A stretch of 64,000 nt of DNA, from NCBI GenBank assembly GCA_015063985.1, contig SVTC01000002.1, positions 67,475-131,474 on the forward strand, read 5' to 3'. Source of the stretch: Oscillospiraceae bacterium. Lineage in GTDB: Bacteria > Bacillota > Clostridia > Oscillospirales > SIG627. A program made the position numbers and the translations under genes. Below, one piece after another: positions 7,905-51,869 of this stretch (the stretch's first letter is position 1; each line of letters begins with the position of its first letter). Below the pieces are notes generated by a model, which was not told where the DNA came from, did not search any database, and worked only from the letters and a program-made list of their open reading frames with translations.

Positions 7905-7924
7905 TTCTCTTTACCCTTCCTTTT

Positions 7925-8755
7925 TTACATAGAAAAATAATTCTTAACCGCAGAATAAAACTGTCTGTCATGCAAAACCACAAGCTTGGCACAGGTATTG
8001 GATGCCCTGATCGTAAGCTTGCTTCGAGAGTCAAAATTCGAAAAATATTTTCCGTCGACGTATACGCTTGCCACTGCATCCGTTTCGTCAATGCAAAGCT
8101 CGCTGTCCCTGCCGAATACTATAGGTCTTGCACCCAAGGAGTGGGCGCAGATGGGTACCGACAAAATAAGCTCCAGCCCCGGATCCATAACTGGACCGCC
8201 CGCCGACAGAGAGTAGGCAGTGGAGCCTGTGGGTGTGGATATGATTATACCGTCGGCTCTGAAGGTTCCCAGACTTCTTCCGTTTTCGCTCAGAGAAAGG
8301 CTCAACATCTTCTTTTGTATCTGATGACAGACAACAACGTCGTTAAGCGCCGTCTCCGCCAAGCCGCCGTTTATGCTGACGTCAAGCATCATTCGCTTTT
8401 CACAGCTGTAGTCACCCTCAAAAAGCTTTTTTAAAAGCTCCAGCTCTCCAAGCTCAACACCGCTCATATATCCTACCTTGCCCATATTTACTCCAAGGAT
8501 CGGAATGTCCCTTTTACTGCAGGGCTTTGCGGCTGAAAGTATGGTGCCGTCCCCGCCGATCACCACGGTCAGCTCGGTTCCCTCAAGAAGCTCATCCAAG
8601 GTCTCGCACTGCCTTACGTATTGGGGAGCCTTTGGCATATCGCTTGACCTCACCTTTAGCTCGGCTCCGTATTGATGTAAGATCTCAGCCACCCTAATGC
8701 TGACCGCAAAATCATGATCCTTTTTCTGATTGGGCCACAGGGCAATGTTTTTCAT
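7925..8755 (-). CDS. nadK: NAD(+) kinase
   Basis: GGDGT, ALND, STPTGSTAYSLSAGGP. Confidence 0.95.
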   Translation of the reverse strand: MKNIALWPNQKKDHDFAVSIRVAEILHQYGAELKVRSSDMPKAPQYVRQCETLDELLEGTELTVVIGGDGTILSAAKPCSKRDIPILGVNMGKVGYMSGVELGELELLKKLFEGDYSCEKRMMLDVSINGGLAETALNDVVVCHQIQKKMLSLSLSENGRSLGTFRADGIIISTPTGSTAYSLSAGGPVMDPGLELILSVPICAHSLGARPIVFGRDSELCIDETDAVASVYVDGKYFSNFDSRSKLTIRASNTCAKLVVLHDRQFYSAVKNYFSM

Positions 8756-8761
8756 TATTGT

Positions 8762-9502
8762 TCACGTCTCCTTTTTTCTTTTGACGCTGTACTGCAAAAA
8801 TTCCTTGTTACCGTCTCCGCCCTCTATGGGGGATTCTATAATTCCCTTTATTTCAAAGCCCCTTTCCTCAAGCTTAAGCTTAAGACCGTGGCAAGCGCTT
8901 TGAATAGCCGCAGGCTTTTTCACAATGCCGTTTTTCCCCAGATTCTCTCTTCCCACCTCAAATTGGGGCTTTATCAGGGAAACGAACTCTCCGCCCTCGG
9001 GCAGAATATCAAATACCGCATCGTAAAGAAGAGCCTGGCTGATAAAGCTTACGTCCATAACTACCATCTGCACAGCCTCGGGAAAGCTATCCCGACCAAG
9101 CTCTCTGGCATTGGTATTTTCCATTACCGCCACTCTTTTATCAAATCTAAGCTTGGGGTGGAGCTGAGCGGTTCCAACGTCCACGCAATATGCCTTTTTT
9201 GCTCCTCTTTGAAGCATACAGTGGGAAAAGCCTCCGGTGCTTGCTCCTATATCGCAAAATACCTTACCCTCAACGTCGATACCAAAGGCATCCAGAGCCG
9301 CCTCCAGCTTAAGACCGCCTCGGCTGACGTATCTTGTAAGGGGCGAATCCTTAACCTCTATAAGACAAAAGGTCTCCAGCTCCTCGGAGGGCTTTTTAAC
9401 CTTGATCCCGTTGGCAAAGACCCTTCCCTCGCGAATAAGCTTTCCCGCAAGAGTCCTGCTTTCACAGTGCCCGTAAAGGTGCAAAAGAACGTCCGCCCTC
9501 AT
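8762..9502 (-). CDS. tlyA: TlyA family rRNA methyltransferase
   Basis: S4-like N-terminus, YVSRGGLKL, DIGASTGGF, LIKPQFE, GNKEFL. Confidence 0.93.
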   Translation of the reverse strand: MRADVLLHLYGHCESRTLAGKLIREGRVFANGIKVKKPSEELETFCLIEVKDSPLTRYVSRGGLKLEAALDAFGIDVEGKVFCDIGASTGGFSHCMLQRGAKKAYCVDVGTAQLHPKLRFDKRVAVMENTNARELGRDSFPEAVQMVVMDVSFISQALLYDAVFDILPEGGEFVSLIKPQFEVGRENLGKNGIVKKPAAIQSACHGLKLKLEERGFEIKGIIESPIEGGDGNKEFLQYSVKRKKET

Positions 9503-11343
9503 TTCAAAAGCTCCTTTGCTCTTTCATATAGGCTTTGCTTATCCAGCCCGCAAAGGCTGTAAAGAGTGTCCACCTTGCCGTGGCACACCTTTGAGTCTAT
9601 GGCGCATATATCCATTTTATCGGCATCGCATACTATTTTTCCCGTGGCTATCTGAGTGACTGCCCACTGAGAAAAGCCGCCGATCTTAACGCCCTCTTCG
9701 CAGAACAAAAGCCTTTTTGCTCCCCTTATCGCCTTCTCAAAGCAGGCTATATCCAAGGGCTTTATACGGTTTATTTTAACCACTCTTGATAAGATCCCTT
9801 CCGCCTCAAGAAGCTCTTTAGCTTCGAGGCATCTCTCGGTCTGTCTGCCGTAGCAGATCATCGCCAGCTCTCCCTCACCGAAGCTTTCAACGTCCTCAGT
9901 GCAGTCAAAGCATTGAAGAGCTCTTTGACTTTGTCCGCCCTTGGGGATCCTGACAATGGCGGGAGAGGAGAGCCTCGATTCCTTTTTAAGAAGCTTCTCA
10001 AGGGAGCTTACCGCCTCCTTGAAGGTAGCGGGAGAATAAATATACACCCCCGGCATACTCATGGTCATAGCCACGTCGTATATTCCGTGATGGGTGGGAC
10101 CGTCCTCGCCCACCAAGCCTGCTCGGTCAAGCACGGTAACCGTCCCCAGCTCCTGAAGAACACAGTCGTGCCAGAACTGATCGTAGGCTCTTTGAAAGAA
10201 GGTTGAATACACGCAAAATACGGGCAAAAGCCCTCCTGCCGCCATTGCCGCGGCACTGGTCTGAGCATGCTCCTCGGCAATTCCCACGTCGAAAAATCTA
10301 TCGGGAAACCTTTGCGCAAAGTCGCTGAGACCGACACCGTCCGTCATTGCCGCAGTGATTGCCACCAGGTCGGGATTCTCCTCTGCCATTCTGCAAAGAG
10401 TCTCACCCACGACCGATGAAAAGTCTTGCTTATCAGAGCTTTGCTTCTTTTTTGCCGATCCGACACTGTGAAAGCGCGAGGGATCGTTTTCCGCAGGCTC
10501 ATAGCCCTTTCCCTTAACGGTATACAGATGAACGATACAAGGTCCCTGATGACGCTTTGCCGCCCTCAAAAGCCTCTCCACGGTTTTAAGATCGTTTCCG
10601 TCGCTTGGGCCGAAATATCTTATGCCGTACATTTCAAAAAGATTGCTTTGCGCCAGCATCATTCTTTTAAGCCTTGTTTTCAGCCTGATTATCGCCCTTG
10701 CAAGGGGCTTTCCCAGAAGAGGTATCCTCATCATTGCTCTTCTGCTCTTATCCATAAGCTCGTAATAGCCGTCACCGGAGCGGATCTTGTTAAGATAGCC
10801 GGACAGTGCTCCCACCGAGGGTGATATGCTCATCTCATTATCATTGAGGATGATTATAAGCCTATCATCCCTTTTTACGTTATTAAGAGCCTCGAATACC
10901 ATTCCGCCGGTAAAGGCGCCGTCGCCTATTACGGCAACCGAATACGCCCCCGTATTTTTAAGCTTCGCACTTTGTGCATATCCCAATGCCGCGCTGATGC
11001 CCGTAGAGCTGTGGCCCACACCGAAGGCATCAAACTCACTTTCCTCCATTTTCGGAAAGCCGCTTATCCCGCCGAGCTGCCTGAGATCTCCGAATTTCTC
11101 CGCTCTGTCAGTCAGAGTCTTATGTACGTAGCTTTGGTGACCCGTATCGTAAATGATCTTATCCGTAGGCAGATCAAAGCATCTTGACAGAGCAAGGGAT
11201 ATTTCAACTATCCCCAGATTGCTGGCAAGATGACCGCCCGTCTTACTGACGTTTTCTATTAAATGGCGCCTTATTTCTTCACAAAGCTCCGCGGCTTGAC
11301 TATCGTTTAAGGCCTTTAGTTCCTGCTGAGTATATTGCTTCAT
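9499..11343 (-). CDS. dxs: 1-deoxy-D-xylulose-5-phosphate synthase
   Basis: GGHLASNLG, GHQSYVHK, GDGAFTGG, DRAGLVGEDGPTHHG. Start trimmed to ATG 11343 after GGAG. Confidence 0.95.
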   Translation of the reverse strand: MKQYTQQELKALNDSQAAELCEEIRRHLIENVSKTGGHLASNLGIVEISLALSRCFDLPTDKIIYDTGHQSYVHKTLTDRAEKFGDLRQLGGISGFPKMEESEFDAFGVGHSSTGISAALGYAQSAKLKNTGAYSVAVIGDGAFTGGMVFEALNNVKRDDRLIIILNDNEMSISPSVGALSGYLNKIRSGDGYYELMDKSRRAMMRIPLLGKPLARAIIRLKTRLKRMMLAQSNLFEMYGIRYFGPSDGNDLKTVERLLRAAKRHQGPCIVHLYTVKGKGYEPAENDPSRFHSVGSAKKKQSSDKQDFSSVVGETLCRMAEENPDLVAITAAMTDGVGLSDFAQRFPDRFFDVGIAEEHAQTSAAAMAAGGLLPVFCVYSTFFQRAYDQFWHDCVLQELGTVTVLDRAGLVGEDGPTHHGIYDVAMTMSMPGVYIYSPATFKEAVSSLEKLLKKESRLSSPAIVRIPKGGQSQRALQCFDCTEDVESFGEGELAMICYGRQTERCLEAKELLEAEGILSRVVKINRIKPLDIACFEKAIRGAKRLLFCEEGVKIGGFSQWAVTQIATGKIVCDADKMDICAIDSKVCHGKVDTLYSLCGLDKQSLYERAKELLK

Positions 11344-11638
11344 TATCTCTCCGTGCCCCCTTTCGGGAGCATAGTGTTTTATATTAAGCTCTCCGATCCA
11401 AAACGACCGTAAAAAGTATAACAATGCTTAGTTTTTCGATTTGAACAAAAACCGTGCAAGTTTATTTTATCATATAAATTATAAAAATACAACACTATTT
11501 TGATTTTATTAAATAAAAATACAAAATATCAAAGCAAAGAAAAATCTTTAAATAAAAACAGGTAAATATAATGAAAATAAGTTGCAAAAAAATGAATATT
11601 ATGCTATACTGATAAGAGTCAAAAAGGAGGCGATCGAA

Positions 11639-12781
11639 ATGAAAGCCGTAAAAGCAATAATAAACGCTAAAATAGTTTTTCCAAACAAGATAAAGGAAGG
11701 CTGTTTGGTATTCAATGACAAGATTATCGGCGCCTACGACTTCCTTCCTCAAGGCTTTGAGGGTGAGGTCATCGATGCCGACGGAGGGTATCTCTGCCCC
11801 GGTCTTATAGACGTTCATACCCACGGATATATGGGTATAGAATACACCGATGCCGATATGGAAAAGAACCTGAAAATATTAAGATCACTGCCTCAGCACG
11901 GCGTAACCGGGCTTCTTCCCACGGTTATGACAGTGAAGAAAGAGCTTATGGAAAGCTCCTTTGCCGCTCTGGAGCCTCTGATAAAAAAAGAAGGCACGGG
12001 TGCTGTGGTTTTAGGCATAAACAGTGAAGGACCCTTTATAAATCCCGAAAAAAAGGGCGCACAGGATGAGAACGGAATACAAAGCTTCGATGCGGATTGG
12101 ATACTCTCCCACAAAAACAGCATTCGCATTATAACCGTAGCTCCCGAAATGCCCGGATTTGAAGCCTTTGCCGAAAGGATCTGCCAAAATTCATCTATCA
12201 TCCTCAGCGCGGGCCATACCAACGCCACCGCCGAAGACATAATCCGCAGTGCCGATCTGGGACTTAAAAACGTAACTCATCTTTTCAACGCCATGAGCCC
12301 TCTGGGTCACAGAGCTCCCGGTACGGCGGGAGCCGCGCTTACCGATTCCAGGCTCTATTGCGAGCTGATTTGCGACGGATTCCACGTTAACAGCCTGCTT
12401 TTCGATACAGTCCGCAGACTCAAGGGTGACAAGCTTTGTCTTATCACCGACAGTGTCCGTCCCGCAGGTCTTCCCGACGGAAGGTACGATAACGGCTTTT
12501 CCTATATCACAAAAACCGGAATTCAGTGTCTGCTTCCAAACGGTACCATTGCAGGAAGCGTGCTGACAATGAATCTTGCTGTCAAAAACTTCTACGAAAG
12601 CACCGGCTGCCCCCTTTGGGAAGCGGTCAACGCCGCCTCACTCAACCCCGCAAGACTTCTGGGCGAGGATGGAAGCATAGGCTCTATCGAGGCAGGAAAG
12701 GACAGCGACCTTGTTATCTTTGACAAGGATTTCAACACAGTAAAAACATTTATAAAAGGAGATACAGTATATGAACATTAA
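11639..12781 (+). CDS. nagA: N-acetylglucosamine-6-phosphate deacetylase
   Basis: PGLIDVHTHG, EGPFI, THLFNAM, DGFHV. AGGAGG before ATG 11639. Confidence 0.95.
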   Translation: MKAVKAIINAKIVFPNKIKEGCLVFNDKIIGAYDFLPQGFEGEVIDADGGYLCPGLIDVHTHGYMGIEYTDADMEKNLKILRSLPQHGVTGLLPTVMTVKKELMESSFAALEPLIKKEGTGAVVLGINSEGPFINPEKKGAQDENGIQSFDADWILSHKNSIRIITVAPEMPGFEAFAERICQNSSIILSAGHTNATAEDIIRSADLGLKNVTHLFNAMSPLGHRAPGTAGAALTDSRLYCELICDGFHVNSLLFDTVRRLKGDKLCLITDSVRPAGLPDGRYDNGFSYITKTGIQCLLPNGTIAGSVLTMNLAVKNFYESTGCPLWEAVNAASLNPARLLGEDGSIGSIEAGKDSDLVIFDKDFNTVKTFIKGDTVYEH

Positions 12782-13553
12782 GCTTCTCACTCACCCCACA
12801 ATGAAAAACGTCCGTGTTTTCGTTTGCGAAAACTACGATGAGCTCAGCGAAAAGGCAGCTGCCATTGTCGGCGGTGCAATGCAGCAAAAGGACGGCTTCA
12901 TCCTCGGACTTGCAACAGGCTCCTCTCCCGTAGGACTCTATCAGGGTCTTATCAAGCAGTACGAGGAGGGCGTTTTGGACTTTTCTAAGGTTAAAAGCTA
13001 CAATCTTGACGAGTACTATCCCATCGCTCCCGAGAACGATCAGAGCTACGTTTACTTTATGAACAAAAACCTTTTCGACCACGTTAACATCGACAAGGCA
13101 AACGTTCATCTTCCCGACGGCAACGCCGCAGACGTTGAAAAGGCTTGCAGTGACTACGAAAAGGAGATCAGCGACCTCGGCGGAGTTGACCTTCAGGTTC
13201 TTGGAATCGGCTCCAACGGTCATATCGGCTTTAACGAGCCCTGCGACGAGTTTGTAGGTCCCACACACGTGGTTACTCTTACCGAAAACACCATAAAGGA
13301 CAACTCCCGTTTCTTTGCAAGTGCCGACCTTGTTCCCCGCAAGGCTGTCAGCATGGGTATCGGAACCATTATGAACGCAAAGCAGATCGTTCTTGTTGCC
13401 AACGGAAAGAACAAGGCAGATGCCATCAAGGCCGCTCTTGAGGGCCCCGTTGTTCCCGGCGTTCCCGCTTCCGTTTTGCAGTTCCACAAGAACGTTACCT
13501 TCGTTCTTGACAAGGATGCCGCATCAAAGCTGGAAATATTCAAGGAGAACTGA
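12771..13553 (+). CDS. nagB: Glucosamine-6-phosphate deaminase
   Basis: LGLATGSSP, NLDEY, GIGSNGHIGFNEP. Confidence 0.96.
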   Translation: MNIKLLTHPTMKNVRVFVCENYDELSEKAAAIVGGAMQQKDGFILGLATGSSPVGLYQGLIKQYEEGVLDFSKVKSYNLDEYYPIAPENDQSYVYFMNKNLFDHVNIDKANVHLPDGNAADVEKACSDYEKEISDLGGVDLQVLGIGSNGHIGFNEPCDEFVGPTHVVTLTENTIKDNSRFFASADLVPRKAVSMGIGTIMNAKQIVLVANGKNKADAIKAALEGPVVPGVPASVLQFHKNVTFVLDKDAASKLEIFKEN

Positions 13554-13557
13554 TTTG

Positions 13558-13584
13558 AAGCGGGGCTTTCGCCCCGCTTTTTTA
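13558..13584 (+). terminator. Intrinsic terminator after nagB
   Basis: AAGCGGGGC-tttc-GCCCCGCTT followed by TTTT. Confidence 0.85.
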
Positions 13585-13589
13585 AAGCT

Positions 13590-14705
13590 ATGATCTATTT
13601 TGACAACAGTGCCACCACCTGCCCCTCTAAAGGCTGTATAGATGCCGTCACAGGCGAGCTTTTGCTCTTTGCCAACCCCTCCAGTGTTCACACCGCAGGC
13701 TGGGAGGCAAGGAAAAGGCTGGAAGCCAACCGTGCCGTTATTGCTAAGACCCTATCGGCAAGTGCGGATCAGCTTATCTTCACCGCCAGCGCCACGGAGG
13801 CCGACAATATGGCTCTTATCGGCGCCGCAAACGCAAAAAAACGCAGGGGAAAAACGGTAATAATAACAGACAGCGAGCACCCCGCCGTAAGCCAAAGCGC
13901 TCTCAAGCTGGAAAGCGACGGCTTCAAGGTAGTACGCATCCCCACTAAGGGAGGAGCTCTCGATCTTTCTGCCATTGAAAGCGTCTGCTCATCGGGAGAC
14001 GTTATTCTTTCAAGCCTTATGCACGTCAACAACGAGACGGGCGCGGTATATGATGTTAAAGCTGCCAACACCCTTATAAAAAGGCTTTGCCCCGAGGCTC
14101 TTTGCCACTGCGACTGTGTGCAGAGCTACTTAAAATATCCCGTCTCTCTTCAAGGCCTCTGTGCCGATATGATAAGCATAAGCGCCCACAAGGTCTGCGG
14201 ACCCAAGGGGATTGCCGCTCTTGTTTTAAAAAAGGGTGTCAGAATACTCCCGATAATCCACGGCGGCGGTCAGGAAAGCACCTTAAGAAGCGGAACAGAA
14301 AACAGCCCGGGAATTGCCGGCTTTGCCGCGGCGGCAACCGAAGGCTTTGAGAATATGGAAAAAAACAAGGCTATTGTTTTGAACCTGAAGGCAATTATTG
14401 AAGATTCCTTTAAGGAAAACAAGCTTATTTCCTTCAACCGTCCTCCCGTCCAAAGTCCGTGGATCATAAGCATGCAGGTCAAGGGCTTTAAAAGCGAGGT
14501 ACTTTTAAGAATGCTTTCAGACAAGGGTATTTTTGTCAGTGCGGGCAGCGCCTGCTCCTCAAAAAACAAGAAAAGCCCTATTTTAAAGGCCTTCGGCTTA
14601 AGCGATGCCGAGGCTGACTGCACCGTAAGGATAAGCTTCTCTCACACCAACACTGCCGATGAGTGCAGAGAATTTACCCGAAAGCTTAACGAAATTATAA
14701 AATAA
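13590..14705 (+). CDS. iscS: Cysteine desulfurase (IscS/NifZ-like, thiI-associated)
   Basis: YFDNSATT, HVNNETG, SAHKVCGPKG, SAGSACSS. Confidence 0.9.
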   Translation: MIYFDNSATTCPSKGCIDAVTGELLLFANPSSVHTAGWEARKRLEANRAVIAKTLSASADQLIFTASATEADNMALIGAANAKKRRGKTVIITDSEHPAVSQSALKLESDGFKVVRIPTKGGALDLSAIESVCSSGDVILSSLMHVNNETGAVYDVKAANTLIKRLCPEALCHCDCVQSYLKYPVSLQGLCADMISISAHKVCGPKGIAALVLKKGVRILPIIHGGGQESTLRSGTENSPGIAGFAAAATEGFENMEKNKAIVLNLKAIIEDSFKENKLISFNRPPVQSPWIISMQVKGFKSEVLLRMLSDKGIFVSAGSACSSKNKKSPILKAFGLSDAEADCTVRISFSHTNTADECREFTRKLNEIIK

Positions 14706-14719
14706 AAAAGGAATTTGTT

Positions 14720-15904
14720 ATGACACAAAAAAGATGTATTCTTCTGAAATACGGCGAGCTGATCCTCAAGGGTCTCAACAAAAGATTTTTCGAAGACAAG
14801 CTTCTTGAAAGCGTAAGAGAAAAGCTTAGCGGCTTGGGAGACTTCAAGGTCAGTGTGCTCCAATCTACCGTGACAGTCTTCTGCGAGGACGACAGCCTTT
14901 ACGACCTCGCCCTGGAAAGAATGCAAAGGGTCTTCGGAATAGTCAGCGTTTGCATTGCTTATATAGCCGAAAAGGATCCCGAGGACATTTGCAGAGTAGT
15001 CAGAGAATACGTCGCTCCCTCCCTGAGAGGCTATCAAAGCTTCAAATGCGATGCCAGACGCTCCGATAAAAAATTCCCAATGACCTCTCCCGAAATAGCG
15101 AGAATGTGCGGAGCGGTCTGTCTTGAGGTCAATCCCCGACTGAAGGTGGACGTAAGAGATCCTCAGATCACCGTTATGACCGAGATAAGGGATAATTTTG
15201 CCTTTATCCACGCAGGCAGTCTCAAGGGCGCGGGCGGTATGCCCGTTGCAACCTCGGGAAAGGTAATGCTTTTATTATCCGGAGGTATCGACAGTCCCGT
15301 TGCGGGACATCTTCTTGCCAAAAGAGGTGCCCAGCTCGAGGCGGTTCATTTCGAAAGCTATCCCTACACCTCCATGCAGGCAAAGGAAAAGGTTCTGGAT
15401 CTTGCAAGAATAATGGCAAACTACACCGGTACGATCAAGGTACACGTGGTCAACGTGACAAACATTCAGCTGGCAATAAAGGAAAAATGCCGCGAGGAAT
15501 ACTTCACACTCATTTTGCGCAGATTTATGATGCGAATTGCCGATCATCTTGCAAAATTCTACGGCTGCGGCGCTCTTGTCACAGGTGAAAGCCTGGGTCA
15601 GGTGGCAAGTCAGACTCTAAGCGCTCTTCACTCCACCAACGCCGTTGCTTCTATCCCCGTTTTCAGACCCCTTATCGGCACCGACAAGGAGGAGATAGTC
15701 ACTATCGCCAGAAGAATCGGCACATTTGATACCTCAGTTCTCCCCTTCGAGGATTGCTGCACCGTATTCACACCCAGGCACCCCAAGCTCAACGTAGAGC
15801 TTTCAAAGCTCATAGAGCAGGAGGAAAAGCTGGATATAGATGCTCTTATCAAGGAGTCACTTGACAGCCGCGACACCGCGGTCTGCAAGCCAATGGATCA
15901 ATGA
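14720..15904 (+). CDS. thiI: tRNA 4-thiouridine(8) synthase
   Basis: THUMP domain, LLSGGIDSPVA, TGESLGQVASQT, EDCCTVF. Confidence 0.95.
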   Translation: MTQKRCILLKYGELILKGLNKRFFEDKLLESVREKLSGLGDFKVSVLQSTVTVFCEDDSLYDLALERMQRVFGIVSVCIAYIAEKDPEDICRVVREYVAPSLRGYQSFKCDARRSDKKFPMTSPEIARMCGAVCLEVNPRLKVDVRDPQITVMTEIRDNFAFIHAGSLKGAGGMPVATSGKVMLLLSGGIDSPVAGHLLAKRGAQLEAVHFESYPYTSMQAKEKVLDLARIMANYTGTIKVHVVNVTNIQLAIKEKCREEYFTLILRRFMMRIADHLAKFYGCGALVTGESLGQVASQTLSALHSTNAVASIPVFRPLIGTDKEEIVTIARRIGTFDTSVLPFEDCCTVFTPRHPKLNVELSKLIEQEEKLDIDALIKESLDSRDTAVCKPMDQ

Positions 15905-16758
15905 ATGCTCTCACCGCAAGGCTAAAAGGCCTTCTCTTCGCTCTTATCTACACCATAACCTTCGTTTCGGGACAGTTATTTGCAGACCTGCTCCTGATGA
16001 TACCCTACGCCATTGCGCAGTATTCATCCCTGGACGACGTACAAAACTTCTCCAACAAGCTTACCGAGCTTTTTAAAACCGATTTTCTTCCCCGATACAG
16101 CTGGCTGGTCTCTATATTAAGCGCCGCGATCTCAATTCTGCTCCTGCTTATCATAACTAAATTCACATCGAGATCCTTCAAAGCCCGGACTGCTATCAGA
16201 AAATGCCCCGTATCCCCCTTTCTCTATATAGTCACACTCTCTATCGGTCTGCAGATATTGATTACCCTGGCTATAGATTCTCTTGGCAGTATATCTGTTT
16301 TTGAGGAGCTTATAAAACAGCAAAACGACTATTCTCAAGCCATAACCGGAAATACCAACAAGCTTTTGGAGCTTCTGGCCGTTGCAGTTGCCGCTCCACT
16401 CTGCGAGGAGCTATTCTTCCGCGGCGCCGTACTCTCCTCACTTAGAGAAAACAGCTTCGGAAAAGTATCCTCCGTGCTTATTCAGGCCCTTATGTTCGCT
16501 ATAGTTCACGGTGTTCCCATCGCTATGCTCTATGCCTTTATTATGGGTACCGTTATGGGATGGCTGAGAATAAAATTCGACAGTATATGGCCCGGCATCT
16601 GTCTCCACAGCGTTTTCAACTGTGTTGCCTACTGGTCCTATATGGGCGGAGACGAGCTTCACCCCATCAGCTACGTACTGCTTTGGCTCTCTTCTGCCGC
16701 TATAAGCATTTCAAGCTTTATTTTATTATCAAGAAAGAAGACGGAAAATGAACGTTGA
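15901..16758 (+). CDS. CPBP (CAAX/Abi) family intramembrane metalloprotease
   Basis: Multi-TM; EELFFRG, FAIVH, HSVFN motifs. Confidence 0.9.
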   Translation: MNALTARLKGLLFALIYTITFVSGQLFADLLLMIPYAIAQYSSLDDVQNFSNKLTELFKTDFLPRYSWLVSILSAAISILLLLIITKFTSRSFKARTAIRKCPVSPFLYIVTLSIGLQILITLAIDSLGSISVFEELIKQQNDYSQAITGNTNKLLELLAVAVAAPLCEELFFRGAVLSSLRENSFGKVSSVLIQALMFAIVHGVPIAMLYAFIMGTVMGWLRIKFDSIWPGICLHSVFNCVAYWSYMGGDELHPISYVLLWLSSAAISISSFILLSRKKTENER

Positions 16759-17314: not shown

Positions 17315-17540
17315 CTTACTTTTTTGAAAAAAAGTAAGCAAAAAACTTTTAATGTCGACCAAGTCTGTGCTAACACATACCACGATGGTTTACTTTACAC
17401 TTATTTTAACGTGCCTTTTTGGAAAAACAATTAAGAACTTCCACCTTTTTAAAAAAAGGTGGAACCAAAAACTTTTAATGTCGATCAAGTCTGTGCTAAC
17501 ACACACCGCGATGCCTTACTTTTCACATAATTAAACATAC
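17315..17540 (+). repeat. Two tandem units of the AT-rich hairpin repeat
   Basis: CTTAC-T6-G-A7-GTAAG-CAAAAAACTTTTAATGTCGACCAAGTCTGTGCTAACACATACCACGATG starts at the base after the pth TAA; second unit at ~17439. Confidence 0.85.
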
Positions 17541-40276: not shown

Positions 40277-40391
40277 AAAATAAAAGGAAGGGCTTGCGGT
40301 ACCTACCGTAAGGCAGGAAAACGCATCATCTATATTGGTGATGCGTTTTTGCTTTTCAACCTACAGTTGAAAAATCTCGTTTATGCAGTTA

Positions 40392-40420
40392 TTGTCAAAA
40401 AAAGATTGCCGTGATATAAT
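40392..40420 (+). promoter_or_regulatory. SigA-type promoter of the cassette 1 passenger gene
   Basis: TTGTCA-17 bp-TATAAT with extended -10 TG. Confidence 0.7.
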
Positions 40421-40464
40421 AAAAGCACAGGACAGGCGCCGTCTTGAAATTCGGAGGTAAATTT

Positions 40465-41256
40465 ATGAATATTGGAAACAAAATTAAAGAATTGAGAAAG
40501 CAACGCGGCATTACTCAAGAACAACTTGCAGATAGCATAGGTGTTTCCTTTCAAGCGGTTAGCAAATGGGAGAATAATATAGCTTTGCCTGATATCACGC
40601 TTGCTCCTGCTTTGGCAAGTTATTTCGGTGTATCTATGGACGTTCTTTTCGATTTCAATTTGCAGGAAATTGAAGATAAAGCATTTGCTATCGCAAAAGA
40701 AAGCTGGAAATATCGTAGCTCCGATTGGGAAAAAGCACGAAACATTATTGATGAAGGGCTGAAGACATATCCTGATAACGTTATTCTTTTGATTAACAGA
40801 CTTTATGTTATGAACAGCGAGGAAACTCCCGACGAGGTTATCACTATCGCGTTGAAAATTATTGATCTTTCCAAAGACGAAGCGATAAAATATGATGCCT
40901 GTCAATTCTTGGCGTATGCGTACAAAGCAAAAGGAGATTATGAAAGTGCGCGAAAAGCAATCGATATCATTCCCGATATTCGTTTCTCGAATCAGAGATT
41001 GAAAGCGTCCATTTTGGAAGGAAAAGAGAAATGGGATGCGGCATGTCAAGAATTTAATGAATCTTTATATGCATTTATGTTTATCACTTATAGCATGGCA
41101 GAATGTTGCAATGAAAGAGGCGAATATAAAGAAGCTTTGGAATATTATGAGAAAGCTTTACGTGTACTTGACATCTATAAAGTGAAAGAAAGCTGGTATG
41201 GTTTTCGTGAAGGGTTTAATGAAGAAATTGCAAAGATAAAAGAAAAAGCGAAATAA
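40465..41256 (+). CDS. XRE-family HTH regulator with TPR-like C-terminus
   Basis: GGAGG SD; IKELRKQRGITQEQLA...VSFQAVSKWE..PD; helical repeats (GDYESAR, GEYKEALEYYEKAL); more AT-rich than its neighbours. Confidence 0.88.
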   Translation: MNIGNKIKELRKQRGITQEQLADSIGVSFQAVSKWENNIALPDITLAPALASYFGVSMDVLFDFNLQEIEDKAFAIAKESWKYRSSDWEKARNIIDEGLKTYPDNVILLINRLYVMNSEETPDEVITIALKIIDLSKDEAIKYDACQFLAYAYKAKGDYESARKAIDIIPDIRFSNQRLKASILEGKEKWDAACQEFNESLYAFMFITYSMAECCNERGEYKEALEYYEKALRVLDIYKVKESWYGFREGFNEEIAKIKEKAK

Positions 41257-41330
41257 GATATTGCATTTGTGTCCGCAAAAGCAGTGCTTGTCAGGAAAAA
41301 CAGACAGACTTTCAGAGCGCACAAACAAAA

Positions 41331-41513
41331 GGCTCCCTCCGGGAGGGAGCTCCCGACGAAGTCGGGTGAGGGAGAGCGCGTTACAATAAAAATTGTGCTT
41401 ATTTGACAGTCACGCGGGCTCCTTCCGTCACGCTACGCAGCGAACCCCCAAAGCTCATTTCATTCGCTTCGGGGAACCCCTGCCGCGTGCCACCTTCCTC
41501 CCGGAGGAAGGCT
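41331..41513. repeat. GC-rich composite REP/MITE-like element, copy 1
   Basis: GGCTCCCTCCGGGAGGGAGC...CTTCCTCCCGGAGGAAGGCT; near-identical to 49126-49382. Confidence 0.85.
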
Positions 41514-41642
41514 ATTTTGCCGCCTGGCAGTATACCTAAGAGGTGTAACACACTATACCTTGCGTGGCAGGCATGTGAAAAGGAGTACGAACAAATCGTC
41601 CGTACTCCTTTTGTTATTTTTTCGGAAGGTGTTGCCCCCTGC

Positions 41643-41800
41643 GTGTCATCTTGAGCGGAGTCCGCCCGAGATTCCACCTTCGCTTTGCTCGGTGCTGCTT
41701 CGCAGTTCGACTACGCTACGCTTCGCTCAGAATGACACGGCGGACGCAGTCGAAACCCGAAGGGCGAACGGCAATGCCGTTCGGATCTCGCAGGGAGATT
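41643..41800. repeat. Second REP-like palindromic element
   Basis: GTGTCATCTTGAGCG...CGCTCAGAATGACAC inverted repeat plus further hairpins. Confidence 0.65.
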
Positions 41801-41848
41801 AAAACCTGCTTTATGGAAGGCACCCCTTGTCCCTTCCTTTTTTACGGT

Positions 41849-46610: not shown

Positions 46611-48968
46611 ATGAGCGCAGATCTTAGAGTTGCTCTTTCGGCGGCAGACGAGGCTTTTCCCGTAACGGGAAGCACGGTTACCGTTCTGAGCCTTGACGGC
46701 AGAGAGCTTTACAGCGAAATCGTTTCAAGTGAAAGCGAAGGAAGATCGGGTCCCTTCAGGCTTTTTACACCCGATATTTCCTCAGATGAGCCCGATGATG
46801 GCGGTCCCAAGCCCTACTCAAAATACACGGTTACAATAAAAAGCAAAAGATATTACAACATTCGTATTGAGGGCGTTCAAATGTTTGACGGCTTCGATTC
46901 GACCCTGCCCGTGTGGATGATCCCTCTGCCCGAGGAGGGAGTGGACCCGGATGCTTACCCCGAAAAGCTCTACGTCATCGGTGACAACGTGCTGAATTCG
47001 TCTTCTCCCCGTCCAGATTCCCAAACTCAGCCCGACTCCTACCTTCCCGCTATTCTGGAAAGCGTATACGTCCCCTCCCGAATAAGGGTCCACCTGGGTG
47101 CGCCGGATTCCGATGCCCAAAACGTCAGTGTAAGCTTTCCCGACTACATCAAAAACGTTGCCTCAAGCGAGATCTATCCCACCTGGCCGGAGGAATCTCT
47201 TCGCGCCAATATCATTGCACAGATATCTCTTGCTCTTAACAGGATCTTCACAGAGTGGTATCCATCCCGCGGCTATAATTTTGATATTACTAACTCCACT
47301 GCCTACGATCAGTATTTTGTGTACGGCAGAAATATTTTCGACAGTGTAAGCCGTATAGTGGACGAGATATTCTCCACTTACCTTCGCCGCCCCGGCAGAA
47401 TTGAACCCTTTTTTGCCGAATACTGCAACGGTACCAGCGTTTCCTGCGCGGGTATGAGCCAATGGGGCACGGTCTCCCTCGCTCAGCAGGGGCTTGATGC
47501 CGAAAGTATTCTCCAATTCTACTACGGTGACGTTGAAACAGTGGTAACGGATGACGTGCGTCAAATAGAGGAAAGCTATCCCGGCTTCCCTCTCAGAGTA
47601 GGCTCCTCCGGTGATGACGTTCGTACTCTCCAGGAGCAGCTCAACAGAGTTGCCATAAACTACCCGTCTGTCGGCCTTACTCCCTCTGACGGTATCTTCG
47701 GCGAAGACACAAGGCGCTCGGTTATTAATTTCCAGCGGCTTTTCGTGCTCTCTCCCGACGGTGTTGTGGGCAGAGCTACCTGGTACAGACTGAGTTATAT
47801 TTATGCCGCCATTAAAAAGCTTGCCGAGCTTACCAGCGAGGGACAGAGGGAGGAATACAATACCACCCAATACCCCGGCTTTATTCTCAGGCGCGGCTCC
47901 CGCGGCAGTGAGGTACAGCAGATACAGTTTTATCTCTCCCGCATAGCACTGTTCAATCCCGCTATTGCCGAGGTGAAGATCGACGGCATCTACGGACTTA
48001 CCACTCAAAATGCAGTTCTTGCCTTCCAGCGATATTACGGCTTGGAGGTTGACGGAGTTGTGGGTAAAAGCACCTGGGATAAGATCGCGTCTGTATATTT
48101 GGGGACTGAGGATTCTCCCGAAGCGCCTGCCCGTGTCCGTCCGTATCCGGGTACTCCCGTTTCCTCTGGCTCACGCGGTGAAAACGCAAAATACGTTCAG
48201 ATACTTTTAAACTACGTTACCTCAGCCTTTCCGGGATTGAAAAAGGTCGTGGCAGACGGAGTTTTCGGGCGGCTCAGCGTGGATGCTCTCAAGGATTTTC
48301 AATCCCTTTTCGGACTCAGCGCAGACGGCGTTGCCGGCAGGCTTACCTGGGACGTTCTTAACAGAGTTTATCTCGCCGTTTCCAAAAACTGCATAGAGTC
48401 CGCTCCCAACGCCTCTGATATCAAGCCTTATCCCGGCTACGTTATCTACGTTGGCTCCGCAGGAAGCAACGTGCGATATATTCAGAATATTCTTAGGACC
48501 ATCAGTAATATTTTCGTTCCCCTTGGACCGATATCCGTGGACGGTGTTTTCGGCAGGTCCACTCAGAATAAAATAAAGACCTTCCAATCCCTTTTCGGTC
48601 TTTCCTCCGACGGAAGCGTGGGCAAAATTACTTGGGACAAGCTGAATCGCATTTACAGCGCCGTTCTTGCAGGCTGCTTTGCACCCGCAAGGCTTGATGC
48701 TTCGGCTCTGACTACTCTCTCTCCCGTTGATTCTTTGCCGCCGCTTCCTCTCTTCAGAGGCTCGCCTATTTGTGTCGGAGCCTTCGGTGAGTCAGTTCTT
48801 GAATTCAAGCGCTTATTCCTGTTTAAGACGGGCATTTCCTTAGGGGATTCCGCTTTATTTGGCTTGAAAAGCGCCGCAATATTGAGAAAATTTCAGCTCG
48901 ACCATTCCTTAGAGCCTACTGCTATCCTTGATGAAGCTACTTTTTCATATCTCTATGAAGAAGTATAA
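46611..48968 (+). CDS. SleC-like spore cortex-lytic protein (SpoIID/LytB domain + multiple PG-binding repeats)
   Basis: DYIKNVASSEIYPTWP...NRIFTEWYPSRGYNFDIT; four YPG..L..GS.G..V..Q...DG.VG..TW repeats plus a degenerate fifth. Confidence 0.82.
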   Translation: MSADLRVALSAADEAFPVTGSTVTVLSLDGRELYSEIVSSESEGRSGPFRLFTPDISSDEPDDGGPKPYSKYTVTIKSKRYYNIRIEGVQMFDGFDSTLPVWMIPLPEEGVDPDAYPEKLYVIGDNVLNSSSPRPDSQTQPDSYLPAILESVYVPSRIRVHLGAPDSDAQNVSVSFPDYIKNVASSEIYPTWPEESLRANIIAQISLALNRIFTEWYPSRGYNFDITNSTAYDQYFVYGRNIFDSVSRIVDEIFSTYLRRPGRIEPFFAEYCNGTSVSCAGMSQWGTVSLAQQGLDAESILQFYYGDVETVVTDDVRQIEESYPGFPLRVGSSGDDVRTLQEQLNRVAINYPSVGLTPSDGIFGEDTRRSVINFQRLFVLSPDGVVGRATWYRLSYIYAAIKKLAELTSEGQREEYNTTQYPGFILRRGSRGSEVQQIQFYLSRIALFNPAIAEVKIDGIYGLTTQNAVLAFQRYYGLEVDGVVGKSTWDKIASVYLGTEDSPEAPARVRPYPGTPVSSGSRGENAKYVQILLNYVTSAFPGLKKVVADGVFGRLSVDALKDFQSLFGLSADGVAGRLTWDVLNRVYLAVSKNCIESAPNASDIKPYPGYVIYVGSAGSNVRYIQNILRTISNIFVPLGPISVDGVFGRSTQNKIKTFQSLFGLSSDGSVGKITWDKLNRIYSAVLAGCFAPARLDASALTTLSPVDSLPPLPLFRGSPICVGAFGESVLEFKRLFLFKTGISLGDSALFGLKSAAILRKFQLDHSLEPTAILDEATFSYLYEEV

Positions 48969-49125
48969 GTAAGAAAAAAGAAAAAGCCGACTTTTAGAGC
49001 GTCACGCTAAAGGACAGTTTGGGGAAATACGGCATATCTCGAAAGAGGTATGCCGTGTTTTGCGTTTGTGGACACAAATGCAGTGCTTGTCAGGAAAATT
49101 GACAAGTTATAGGTGAACATAAAAA

Positions 49126-49382
49126 GGCTCCCTCCGGGAGGGAGCTCCCGACGGAGTCGGGTGAGGGAGAGCGCGTTACAATAAGGTTTATCTAAATTTA
49201 AGTCACGCAGGCTCCTTCCGTCACGCTACGCAGCGAACCCCCAAAGCTCATTTCATTCGCTTCGGGGAACCCCTGCCGTGTGCCACCGTCTCGCTACGGC
49301 TCGGTCACGCTCGGGCTCTGACACCACACCGTGGTGTCATTCACTACCCTCGCGCCGCTTCGCTACCTCCCGGAGGAAGGCT
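49126..49382. repeat. GC-rich composite REP/MITE-like element, copy 2 (with ~75-bp nested insert)
   Basis: Matches 41331-41513 except for an extra palindromic segment at ~49288-49365. Confidence 0.85.
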
Positions 49383-49426
49383 TTTTTACCTCCCGGAAGG
49401 TAATGGAATAAACTTCTCGAAATATG

Positions 49427-49455
49427 TTTACAAATCGCAAAAAATGTGATATAAT
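49427..49455 (+). promoter_or_regulatory. SigA-type promoter in cassette 2
   Basis: TTTACA-17 bp-TATAAT with extended -10 TG. Confidence 0.72.
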
Positions 49456-49461
49456 AGTTAT

Positions 49462-49675
49462 GCCAAACAAATTTAATAGTAGAATTAGCGGTATCTTTTT
49501 CTTTATGGGATAATTATACCCTTTTTTCGCCATAATCATTTTTAGAATTTGGTAAAAGCGCAAATTCCGAGTAGTGATTATGGTAGAGATACTCTAATTC
49601 TATTAAATTTGTTTGGCGACAATCGGAGTTGGCGTTTTTCGGAGCGTTGACTACGGTTGACGCTCTTTTTATTTT
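49462..49675 (+). ncRNA. Candidate structured RNA/leader (long hairpin + terminator)
   Basis: GCCAAACAAATTTAATAG pairs with CTATTAAATTTGTTTGGC; inner stems; terminator-like GAGCGTTGAC-tacg-GTTGACGCTC plus T-tract. Confidence 0.5.
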
Positions 49676-49703
49676 ATATTTATCTTTTGAAGGGAAAAAT
49701 GAG

Positions 49704-50171
49704 ATGAAAAAAATTGTATCACTTGCACTTGTTCTTAGCACGTTACTGTGTGCATTCACTTTGACTTCTTGCGGTTCGAATAAAAAAGAAGAAGTATTTT
49801 ATAATCTTGTGGACGAAACAAAGGAATTACTTGATATTGTAGCAGATGATATTTATTCATACTGGTATGATTGTATTTATGAAGATAAGTATCTTGATAA
49901 CATTTCTTATGCTGTTGCCTGTGCAAAAAGCGATAACGAAGAAAACATTAATACCATTGAGGAAAACACTACAAAAATCAAGGATCTCTACAAGGAAATA
50001 AAAGATGGAAAATTACGCTCTGAAGCAAAAGCTGTAATGCAAGCATATAATGATTACTATACTTTAATTGTTGAAGTTAGTGGCTCATTCAATTCGTATT
50101 CCGCAAGTAAAGAAACTTATAAAAAAGAACTTGCCAGCGCAATAGACGATTTTTATTTTGAGCTTAATTGA
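49704..50171 (+). CDS. Hypothetical lipoprotein (helical)
   Basis: Signal peptide MKKIVSLALV...LTSC; AT-rich codons; start ATG 49704. Confidence 0.8.
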   Translation: MKKIVSLALVLSTLLCAFTLTSCGSNKKEEVFYNLVDETKELLDIVADDIYSYWYDCIYEDKYLDNISYAVACAKSDNEENINTIEENTTKIKDLYKEIKDGKLRSEAKAVMQAYNDYYTLIVEVSGSFNSYSASKETYKKELASAIDDFYFELN

Positions 50172-50350
50172 TTATAGATTGCAAAATCGATAAGAACACT
50201 TTCTTATCCGCTTTTGATTTTGCGTCAAAACAAAAAAAGGACGAGGAATTTCAATAATTCTTCGTCCTTTTCCTGTCGGTAGGTAACATATTCTATTAAT
50301 TTTCAAAAACCGTCCTTAAGAGTACGTCCCATTTTAGTCGGCTTTTATTA

Positions 50351-50929
50351 TTATACGTTCTTTAAGTAAGGCACAAGAGCTGAGTAGCAGACCTTGAAGA
50401 CGTGCACGCGAGTGTCCTCGTTGTTTTCAACGTCTCCGTTGAAAACCTTGACTGCGAAATCCAAAACTGTATTAAGTACGTGATTTATAAGCATCCACAC
50501 GTTTGCCTTGGGCTTGAATAAGGGAGTGAGCTTCTCCACTACTCCGCCAAATCTGTGGGCATGCTCTTCAAAGGAATGCTTCTTGAAGTAGGGAGAATAA
50601 TAATAGCGGATAAAAGCAAGACATTTATTCTGATTTCCCAATACAAAGCTCCATAGCTTGCAGAAGCTCAAATAGAATGCCTCCTCGGAATGCTCCTTAT
50701 CCGCTACAAGGTTGATGCTATCTTCGATGCATTTAAGAAGCTCATCATCAAGAAAGGAAAACGTATTCTTAAACAGATCCTCTTTGTCCAGAAAAACTCT
50801 ATAAATATACGCCTCATTGATCTTTGCACCGCCTGCAACTACCTTTGTGGTAGTTTTGTCTATACCGAGAGTTCCTATTGCATTTACTGTACTGTCTAAC
50901 AATGCAACTCTCATTTCGTCCAGTGTCAT
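50351..50929 (-). CDS. TetR/AcrR family regulator
   Basis: GIDKTTTKVVA..AKINEAYIYRVFLDKEDLF HTH; GGAGG SD. Confidence 0.88.
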   Translation of the reverse strand: MTLDEMRVALLDSTVNAIGTLGIDKTTTKVVAGGAKINEAYIYRVFLDKEDLFKNTFSFLDDELLKCIEDSINLVADKEHSEEAFYLSFCKLWSFVLGNQNKCLAFIRYYYSPYFKKHSFEEHAHRFGGVVEKLTPLFKPKANVWMLINHVLNTVLDFAVKVFNGDVENNEDTRVHVFKVCYSALVPYLKNV

Positions 50930-51300
50930 AATTGATCCTCCGTTTGTTTCTTCTCTCTCATATAATATATTCTAACATATTATATATACTTAATCAAGTG
51001 TTATTTTAGAAAAAATTCGTTATAAATGCATATTTTTTTCGTGTTTTTGCCCCTTTTTATGTAGTGTTTATTATACAAATTGCTGAAAATTATTAAAATT
51101 AAAGAAATCAAAAGAGATTGCATATTGAAAAGCGGAAGGCCGTAATTCCTTCCGCTTGCCGAAGATTATTAAGACGTTTATGAGTTGGGGCACAATGTGT
51201 GCCGAAATCTTGTCAACGACAAGTTTTTTGGTCCCGGTATTTTAACCGTTAAAAATGTAGTGAATGAATATGCGGTATATTTTCCTTTTATATAGCGGAT

Positions 51301-51869
51301 ATAAGTGGGTGCAGAGTAAAGGAGCGTGGTATGTGTTGGTGCTGACTTGATCGACAATGAAAGTTTTTTGCCTACTTTTTTTCAAAAAGAGATGTATAAG
51401 TCGATGCAGAGTAAAGCATCGTGGTATGTGTTGGTGCTGATTCGATCGACAATGAAAGTTTTTTGCCTGCTTTTTTTCAAAAAGAAATGTTTAAGTCGAT
51501 GCAGAGTAAAGCATCGTGGTATGTGTTGGTGCTGATTTGATCGACAATGAAAGCTTTTTGCCTACTTTTTTTCAAAAAGAAACGTTTAAGTCGATGCAGA
51601 GTAAAGCATCGTGATGTGTGTTGGTGCTGACTTGATCGACAATGAAAGCTTTTTGCCTACTTTTTTTCAAAAAGAAACGTTTAAGTCGATGCAGAGTAAA
51701 GCATCGTGATGTGTGTTGGTGCTGACTTGATCGACAATGAAAGTTTTTTGCCTACTTTTTTTCAAAAAGAGATGTTTAAGTCGATGCAGAGTAAAGCATC
51801 GTGGTATGTGTTGGTGCTGACTTGATCGACAATGAAAGTTTTTTGCCTACTTTTTTTCAAAAAAGTAGG
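51301..51869 (-). repeat. Tandem array of the AT-rich repeat, 95-bp period, 6 units
   Basis: Units start (+ strand) at 51326, 51421, 51516, 51611, 51706 and 51801; near-identical, no unique spacers. Confidence 0.95.

Follow-up and report, generated by a model that had tools for sequence, protein, structure and literature searches.

The window analysed here is a stretch of 64,000 nt from an Oscillospiraceae bacterium (assembly GCA_015063985.1, contig SVTC01000002.1; genome G000 below, the assembly being 90.7% complete). In it, two convergent genes, encoding a PG_binding_1/SpoIID protein and a TetR_N regulator, are separated by an insertion that we call cassette 2. The cassette proper comprises 1336 bp (48996-50331), running from AGAGCG to GTCCCA, its ends are imperfect inverted repeats of 25 bp with the core CTWAAGGACAGTTT, and it lies between the two halves of a terminator of the host. 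The features of the site and of the cassette are the following, with the evidence in brackets.

46611-48968, + strand: upstream gene for a protein of 785 aa that has four PG_binding_1 repeats and a SpoIID domain (open reading frame (ORF), Pfam).
48982-48995, no strand: left half of the split host terminator, an A-run and stem AAAAGCCGAC (48982-48991) followed by loop Ts, of which TT at 48994-48995 is the left copy of a 2-bp repeat (sequence, empty-site contig).
48996-49020, + strand: left terminal inverted repeat (arm of the left attachment site, attL), an 11-nt variable tip AGAGCGTCACG and the conserved core CTAAAGGACAGTTT (the core recurs in this genome, in relatives, at 80 loci of other metagenome-assembled genomes (MAGs) and in the full-length element L156).
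49025-49061, + strand: left internal hairpin followed by Ts (repeat search, folding).
49062-49110, + strand: conserved left-module sequence GTGGACACAAATGCAGTGCTTGTCAGGAAAATTGACAAG with a small palindrome (82-92% identity to many copies in relatives).
49121-49400, no strand: nested GC-rich palindromic repeat with 25-nt arms that are 88% complementary (repeat search).
49427-49455, + strand: cargo promoter TTTACA-17-TATAAT with TG upstream (11/12 matches).
49463-49676, + strand: conserved structured leader RNA, with an intrinsic terminator (49641-49666) just ahead of the ribosome-binding site of the cargo gene (7-sequence alignment, terminator scan).
49704-50171, + strand: cargo gene for a protein of 155 aa whose signal peptide is of the lipoprotein type (...LTSCGS...) (ORF).
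50230-50276, no strand: right internal hairpin, preceded by an A-run and followed by a T-run (repeat search, folding).
50307-50331, - strand: right terminal inverted repeat (attR arm), core AAACCGTCCTTAAG and 11-nt tip AGTACGTCCCA (sequence; a family of right ends on contigs C23, C25, C35 and C40 of this genome and in relatives).
50332-50346, no strand: right TT copy (50332-50333), the rest of the loop (TTA) and the right half-stem with T-run GTCGGCTTTT (50337-50346) (sequence, empty-site contig).
50351-50929, - strand: downstream gene, TetR_N regulator (ORF, Pfam).

The half-stems form an inverted pair of 11 nt that is 100% complementary, with 1343 nt between the arms (repeat search), and inspection of the sequence places TTTTA on the inner side of each. 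The stretch of 1551 nt around cassette 2 contains 27 inverted pairs of at least 10 nt, so that the split stem by itself is within chance; we count it as real because of the empty-site contig and the control of flanks across the family, both described below. A preliminary description of this DNA had named these half-stems and the inner TTTTA, the internal hairpins, the left end of a second insertion (cassette 1) and a cargo of promoter, leader and lipoprotein, all of which are there in the letters, and the anatomy is in this sense established.

The left internal hairpin folds at -28.4 kcal/mol against a mean of -10.0 for shuffled sequences, and the right one at -23.0 (+ strand) and -24.5 (- strand) against shuffle means of -7.5 and -8.7. 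The former is kept, with changes, in every left end found, and at the position of the latter other copies carry a hairpin of different sequence. A simple terminator scan flagged neither hairpin (49025-49061, 50230-50276). Behind both hairpins there are T-runs on the strands that face the flanking genes and therefore, to judge from folding, they can replace the terminator that the insertion split: in this model the left hairpin can stop + strand read-through from the upstream gene, whose terminator was split, and the right hairpin could terminate the cargo gene on the + strand and read-through from the TetR gene on the - strand.

The empty allele and the target rule

Contigs of four other gut or faecal metagenome runs (X7-X10) were compared with 48300-51000, and the parts that they do not cover, such as the cargo gene, were left out as evidence. 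One contig (run X8, record 16; 3417 nt, depth 7.26) follows 48300-48993 and continues straight into 50332-50999. It skips 1338 nt, with 2 letters that are ambiguous in that they fit on either side, and differs from our sequence by 8 and 13 letters in the two flanks. The empty allele reads A-run, GCCGAC, TTTTTTA, GTCGGC, T-run, that is AAAAGCCGAC-TTTTTTA-GTCGGCTTTT. It has six Ts where the occupied site has four plus four, and the duplication is therefore exactly 2 bp (TT). The preliminary description had given a duplication of 4-5 bp (TTTT(A)) and an empty site AAAAGCCGAC-TTTTA-GTCGGCTTTT; both are corrected by the X8 contig and by the covariation of TT and AT described below. Its expectation that a relative without the lipoprotein cassette would carry the re-formed hairpin is borne out by the same contig. 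A precise empty allele, with the target whole in the absence of the cassette, thus exists in another sample; the contig displays the allele only and no excision event.

Once rebuilt, the site folds into a hairpin of 11 pairs on either strand (-16.3 and -15.4 kcal/mol against shuffle means near -3) and is a bidirectional terminator serving both convergent genes. Metagenome contigs reveal the site to be polymorphic between strains whose flanks diverge by about 1-2%. Genomes of the same genus match the upstream gene at only 68-71% identity and their intergenic regions could not be aligned, and no empty site was obtained from them. In run X7 (record 9) a third allele is seen, in which 48980 is joined to 50332 and the cassette and left half-stem are replaced by 86 other letters, which could not be read.

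The rule that governs these sites is apparent from other copies. Left ends were fetched from 80 loci of other MAGs, 47 of which have at least 2 kb downstream and 37 a right-end motif. The flanks are perfect reverse complements over at least 8 nt in 28 of the 37 left/right pairs (over at least 6 nt in 29), as against 0.45% of 1332 mismatched left/right pairs that reach 8 nt. Mobile cassettes with one target rule and varied passengers, as first proposed from the two insertions in the window, are thereby supported across many genomes. The stems vary from site to site and are therefore those of the host and not of the element. In a fixed register 11 nt outside the core, the same dinucleotide stands on both sides in 26 of 29 pairs (20 TT/TT and 6 AT/AT); in the remaining three AT is displaced by 1-2 nt, and a left TT is never paired with a right AT. 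The 26 sites rebuilt in this way have A at -15 to -11 (19-25 of 26), W-T at the centre and T at +12 to +17 (18-26 of 26), with the A-run and T-run symmetric about the centre, variable stems and a commonest loop length of 4 nt (10 of 26); the elements measured at them are 365-1955 bp in size. From these alignments the attB-like target appears to be the centre of a factor-independent terminator, consisting of an A-run, a variable G+C-rich stem, a TT/AT loop, the returning stem and a T-run.

Pieces of cassette 2 recur elsewhere in this genome, the left 70-110 nt on contigs C21, C25 and C5 and the right ~100 nt on C35 and C23. In this family each end has a variable tip of 11 nt and a conserved core, which reads CTAAAGGACAGTTT at the left end and AAACYGTCCTTAAG at the right end. 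Six complete split-terminator insertions are present in this genome: cassette 2, cassette 1, C25:20001-21616, C40:~78290-79745, C21/C23 (across a contig break) and C16/C30. Cassette 1 lies in the same window:

40296-41826, + strand: cassette 1, a sister element with the related end subtype CGTAAGGCAGG / CATAAAGCAGG (sequence).
40465-41256: cargo of cassette 1, an XRE-HTH and TPR protein (Pfam HTH_3 and TPR).

It is flanked by TT at 40294-40295 and 41827-41828, within the split terminator AAAAGGAAGGG / CCCTTCCTTTT, and its left-end motif at 40297 is found once where none is expected.

Beyond this genome, the left module was detected in 17 of 50 other genomes of the taxonomic family (E<=1e-5), and a pattern scan of one genome per species returned at least 119 stretches with these ends in other Clostridia MAGs. 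The records bearing them are titled Clostridia, Eubacteriales, Oscillospiraceae and similar, and many come from the gut of goat, sheep or deer. The summed contig depth of the left module in one gut metagenome is 5310, against ~7 for the flanks of cassette 2, and metagenome contigs also hold joints to still shorter forms of the cassette. Partner stems sought for 10 left ends in relatives were not found, most of these ends lying at contig ends. The cassettes are a family widespread in animal-gut Clostridia with terminators as landing sites, and the clustering of their ends, which had been put forward from two copies, holds in this genome, in its relatives and in other MAGs.

Full-length relatives with a serine recombinase

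Of the 80 left-end loci, 12 were inspected over a longer range, and one (L115) runs into an ORF of 565 aa that reads towards the end. This region belongs to an element of 16.8 kb (L156, on contig C46 of genome G067) that shares the core and left hairpin of cassette 2, is flanked by TT on either side and lies within a split terminator, AAAAGGACACTC / GAGTGTCCTTTT, immediately 3' of a tRNA gene. The 565-aa protein, P0001, carries Resolvase, Recombinase, Zn_ribbon_recom and DUF4368 domains. Its gene ends ~70 nt inside the left end, and the left hairpin is placed between the repeat and the stop codon. By Pfam, the further products of L156 are ParB, a relaxase of the MobA/VirD2 type, a NikA-like protein and large helicases, a gene content by which it is recognized as an integrative mobilizable element (IME) with a large serine recombinase (LSR) as its predicted integrase. 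Three large genes fill its positions 6330-16000, encoding an SF1 helicase-like protein of 569 aa, a DEAD helicase of 1707 aa that has an MrfA Zn-binding domain, and a protein of 941 aa that belongs to no family; together they look like anti-phage defence cargo.

Of 201 genomes sampled from the order, 96 contain homologues of P0001 (E<=1e-60). The LSR stop codon is followed within 150 nt by an A-run and a TAARR-type core at 20 of the 30 P0001-homologue loci listed, compared with 3 of 150 control stretches, which establishes the association of these ends with the LSR. The exact core of cassette 2 is found at L160, where the recombinase is 59% identical to P0001, and cores like those of cassette 1 are found at L170, L175 and L181. 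When 14 LSR regions were extended to 20 kb, six turned out to be complete elements, 5.3-19 kb long and flanked at either end by complementary terminator halves; among the eight without a right end, three are cut by contig ends and five have none within 20 kb. The co-occurring enzyme that the preliminary description had thought worth seeking is accordingly found as a DUF4368 LSR just inside the left end of full-length elements, one of which has the same core as cassette 2.

Traces of such an element are present in this genome as well. The C-terminal 133 aa of an LSR are encoded where contig C16 ends, and after them come a hairpin, the repeat variant CTCATAAGGATGTTT, TT and one half of a terminator; the other half lies, with a matching right end, on C30; C16/C30 is an LSR element that has been assembled only in part. 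On a metagenome contig (L188, positions 81-128) a right end with its 11-nt tip, TT and a left end with its 11-nt tip are joined with no stems between them, and an AraC-like gene follows. No other exact joined-ends site was found in the metagenome collection, and the same pattern gave no hits in viral contigs.

The interior of the cassettes: repeat, leader RNA and cargo

In cassette 1 the conserved left-module sequence (49062-49110) is found again at the GC-rich repeat, where it forms the 5' edge. The GC-rich repeat of cassette 2 is 87% identical to window positions 41261-41497 and matches C35 and C3 of this genome; it is dispensable for the element, because a cassette copy without it exists (joint 49133->49374 in run X9). 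Repeats of this long-palindrome type (AAAAAGGCTCCC...GGGAGG...CTTTTT) occupy 49121-49400 and 41261-41520 of the window, C35:99652-99969 and C3:57450-57970, have a very high summed depth in gut metagenomes and look like a separate small repeat family within an internal hairpin. Rfam gave no family at gathering score anywhere in the window. Matches by E-value in 48950-50400 were taken as chance, all of them being far under threshold and over the right hairpin (the best, SraG, at 25.6 bits against a threshold of 50).

The promoter segment TGTGATATAAT is invariant in 7 of 7 aligned homologues. In the same alignment of seven sequences the leader RNA (~215 nt), for which this promoter is a strong one of its own, has 52 predicted pairs, 21 of them with compensatory change, and no Rfam family reached threshold over 49463-49676. 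It precedes different small ORFs in different genomes, the lipoprotein here and a SHOCT-tailed protein on contig C12 of G005, and we regard it as a candidate for a new riboswitch-like or cis-regulatory leader or a small RNA. An element with a DUF4368 recombinase (L206, G010:C23:1-3200) is apparently adjacent to the 3' part of a leader-like RNA (...GATCGGAGCTGTGCATTTTTT...) and may have landed in that RNA's own terminator.

The cargo protein of cassette 2 has no match in Pfam or NCBIfam, and its look-alikes in the Atlas are unnamed Bacillota clusters only, with EMYY_lipop as a weak lead; a homologous cargo stands behind the same left end in another MAG (L054). No ORF for an LSR (Resolvase, Recombinase or Zn-ribbon) or a relaxase is present in 48996-50331, where the sole sizeable ORF is this one without a Pfam family, and no recombinase is encoded in any examined cassette bounded by both ends (0.35-2 kb). 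The passengers of other cassettes are an XRE-HTH and TPR protein, a SHOCT-tailed protein, a 156-aa membrane protein, an AraC-like regulator or a 395-aa protein that, judged by eye, resembles the N-terminal domain of a restriction enzyme, and at several sites there are forms of ~0.4-0.5 kb without cargo. Three cassettes of this genome hold paralogous XRE-HTH and TPR-like regulators (window 40465-41256; C25:20205-21327; C40:~78563-79657 on the - strand). Regulators of the XRE-HTH and TPR type are often peptide-sensing switches on mobile elements.

Just past the TetR gene lies a tandem array (51302-51863) of 5.9 copies of a 95-bp unit with 95% matches; similar units are present at ~17321-17526 of the window and at C42:7355-7521 of this genome.

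Mechanism, alternatives and known systems

Our explanation, which we consider probable, is that cassette 2 is a non-autonomous, att-bounded mini-element of the IME family with the DUF4368, TnpX/TndX-like LSR, most likely moved in trans. Since its full-length relatives encode an LSR and the cassette does not, it cannot be more than a non-autonomous derivative. Strand exchange by serine recombinases takes place at an overlap of 2 bp in the centre of the site. Here a full-length element, resident or incoming, would supply an LSR in trans, which would bind both 25-bp inverted-repeat arms and cut at the TT beside each, and the cassette would leave as a circle. In the circle the joined ends would make a palindromic attP-like site of ~50 bp with TT at its centre, and the circle would re-insert by a 2-bp crossover into the attB-like centre of a terminator, a natural palindrome whose A-run and T-run, 11-17 bp from the centre, would allow it to act as attB. 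Such an insertion would split the terminator, and the internal hairpins of the cassette would take over termination for both flanking genes; the cargo, here the lipoprotein, would arrive with its own promoter and leader. We infer the role of the LSR, its action in trans on cassettes, termination by the internal hairpins and the recombination itself from sequence.

A broader proposal, which we advance tentatively and at somewhat less than even chances, is that of a decentralized, integron-like gene shuttle in animal-gut Clostridia. Here DUF4368 LSRs would use essentially every bidirectional intrinsic terminator as a landing pad, recognized by the geometry of its palindromic A/T tracts and not by the sequence of the stem, and tiny att-bounded single-gene cassettes, in large numbers and with their own promoter, leader and replacement terminators, would travel, mobilized in trans, from terminator to terminator and from genome to genome.

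Several observations weigh against movement of the cassettes in trans by such an LSR. An LSR is adjacent at only the one locus of the 12 inspected. With P0001 as query no LSR of its type was found in this assembly, which is 90.7% complete, apart from the C-terminal fragment on C16, which is 32% identical and belongs to an element with a different repeat subtype, and G000 gave no match to the Recombinase domain (PF07508); G005, with at least six left ends, has no P0001 homologue at E<=1e-60. Of seven LSR regions from G005, G010, G015 and G049, the two from G010 alone have family-type ends. Many cassettes are accordingly orphans in their own assemblies, and for mobilization in trans they would have to rely on elements that are present only at times or that escape assembly. 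The dinucleotides of the complete LSR elements are TT, AT, AA or unclear, and nine of the 37 left/right pairs lack clean complementary flanks. The contig with joined ends is linear (1368 nt) with no overlap between its ends, and would fit either a circle or a tandem of two elements. The link between enzyme and ends is suggested by adjacency and shared architecture, and excision of cassette 2, or a circle of it, is a prediction read from the letters.

It is also conceivable that cassette 2 is a decayed remnant, that is, that a full LSR element integrated into this terminator and lost its interior in place, the cassette never having moved and no mobilization in trans being called for. Its left 70 nt (repeat and hairpin) match the recombinase-proximal end of L156, as those of a deletion derivative would, no cognate recombinase was found in this assembly, and cis-mobilizable elements (CIMEs) are described as products of decay in place (PMC5704250). 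We nevertheless find this unlikely, as short forms far outnumber full-length ones, with a recombinase at one of the 12 left-end loci inspected, and the 26 measured elements are 365-1955 bp in size. The depth of the left module (5310 against ~7 for the flanks), the cargo-less forms at several sites and the joints to shorter forms speak against it too, as do related cargo in different terminators (XRE-TPR in cassette 1, C25 and C40), the same leader with different ORFs, and the polymorphism of the site among strains with closely similar flanks.

Terminal inverted repeats of ~25 bp and a 2-bp direct repeat would equally suit a transposable element of the miniature inverted-repeat kind (MITE) with a passenger, moved by a DDE transposase of the IS630/Tc1-like or IS30-like kind that makes a 2-bp duplication and prefers palindromic targets. 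DDE families with duplications of 2-3 bp and with palindromic hot spots do exist. Such an origin seems very improbable to us, since eight complete full-length elements with ends of this kind showed no DDE transposase (the genomes themselves were not scanned for DDE families), the ORFs of L156 are assigned by Pfam to a recombinase, ParB, a relaxase, NikA and helicases, and the recombinase gene lies directly inside the left end at two-thirds of the homologue loci listed. Moreover, conservation of the repeats is lowest in their outermost 11 nt, as is common at serine-integrase sites, with their variable centre, and uncommon at DDE ends. The hairpins just inside both ends, and a target that is itself a hairpin, could on the other hand call to mind a single-strand, hairpin-dependent element (IS200/IS605-like or integron attC-like) recognized through its subterminal hairpins and inserting into extruded hairpins. 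IS200/IS605 elements are not known to have terminal inverted repeats or a direct repeat, their subterminal hairpins being the recognition sites, whereas cassette 2 has inverted repeats of 25 bp and a 2-bp direct repeat. The right hairpin, moreover, varies in sequence between copies and resembles a plain terminator, no Y1 transposase or integron integrase is found among the proteins of the full-length relatives (Pfam, L156 ORFs), and no cassette arrays were seen; we give this possibility hardly any weight. A reading of the hairpins and GC-rich block as an IS200/IS605 element or its omega RNA had been dropped once true inverted repeats and the recombinase were found.

If cassettes of this kind are moved by DUF4368 LSRs, this would explain how multi-targeting LSRs can be promiscuous yet harmless, as the elements would land in intergenic terminator loops and bring replacement terminators with them. 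It would also mean that miniature non-autonomous derivatives have arisen in abundance from serine-recombinase elements, as they have from DDE transposons, and that single-gene cassettes carrying regulators, lipoproteins, membrane proteins or restriction-like genes form a hidden layer of gene flow in gut Clostridia; standard annotation misses them because they encode no mobility protein. A recombinase with a simple, structure-like attB rule and an attP of 50 bp could in addition serve as an integration tool for Firmicutes.

TnpX, the recombinase of Tn4451/Tn4453, and TndX, that of Tn5397, use a GA dinucleotide. The full-length relatives described here resemble these elements in encoding an LSR whose domains are Resolvase, Recombinase, Zn ribbon and DUF4368 and, in the case of Tn4451, in the relaxase that makes them integrative mobilizable. 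Cassette 2 differs from Tn4451 and Tn5397 in having no recombinase or relaxase, and the target here is a terminator loop with a TT/AT crossover. TnpX of Tn4451 is described as recombining between att sequences with 2 bp of identity and as needing no other protein of the element (PMC5704250), and this 2-bp identical crossover of low specificity is a further likeness; a terminator target is absent from the description of Tn4451 in the available portion of PMC5704250.

The DUF4368 domain is the hallmark of a clade of "multi-targeting" LSRs (Durrant et al. 2022, PMC10083194), and DUF4368 recombinases have been tied to integrative mobilizable elements (preprint 10.1101/2024.01.18.576133). For one multi-targeting LSR, 21 attB sites with a conserved TT core and T/A-enriched ends are given in PMC10083194, which fits the pattern of A-run, WT centre and T-run found here. 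In contrast to the present sites, 'terminator' and 'palindrom' occur 0 times in the main text of that paper, although its supplements may show such motifs, and non-autonomous derivatives are unmentioned in the text available. CIMEs, as defined in PMC5704250, keep attL and attR and have lost the genes for integration and transfer; likewise cassette 2 keeps both arms and has no integrase or relaxase genes. Loss of the interior of a full element might account for the left repeat and hairpin common to cassette 2 and the recombinase-proximal end of L156. The CIMEs of that source are products of decay at single sites that move in cis with a neighbouring element, whereas the mini-elements here are spread over many terminators and genomes, are as small as 365 bp and carry single self-contained genes.

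With MITEs and mobile insertion cassettes the present elements share inverted-repeat ends, the lack of a transposase, small size, high number and, in some, a passenger gene. MITEs and mobile insertion cassettes derive from DDE insertion sequences, whereas the autonomous relatives here encode a serine recombinase. Integron cassettes resemble them as single genes shuttled by a site-specific recombinase encoded elsewhere; integrons, however, rely on an integrase of the tyrosine type, on attC sites that fold and on arrays in fixed order at attI, with mostly promoterless cassettes, whereas the insertions here are scattered, each with its own promoter and terminators, and the enzyme of their relatives is a serine recombinase. 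On account of this scatter and of the association with a recombinase we set an integron origin aside, no search aimed at IntI or attC having been made. Hairpin-forming intergenic sequences as safe landing sites are also used by group IIC introns, IS1630, IS1397, which targets repetitive extragenic palindromic (REP) sequences, and the IS110 family. These hairpin-seeking elements work by retrohoming, DDE or DEDD enzymes or bridge RNAs and differ in this from LSR elements.

In the literature searched, which did not extend to subscription journals or to the supplements of PMC10083194, we came across no account of serine-recombinase elements that lie in terminator loops, nor of miniature forms derived from them. 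The view of the preliminary description that the system is undescribed is therefore kept for the terminator-loop target and the single-gene mini-cassettes, neither of which we found in print, and given up for the recombinase and for the loss of mobility genes, since multi-targeting DUF4368 LSRs and CIMEs had already been described (PMC10083194, PMC5704250). The class of enzyme and its chemistry are already known; what appears to be new is the terminator loop as target and the swarm of single-gene mini-cassettes that occupy it.

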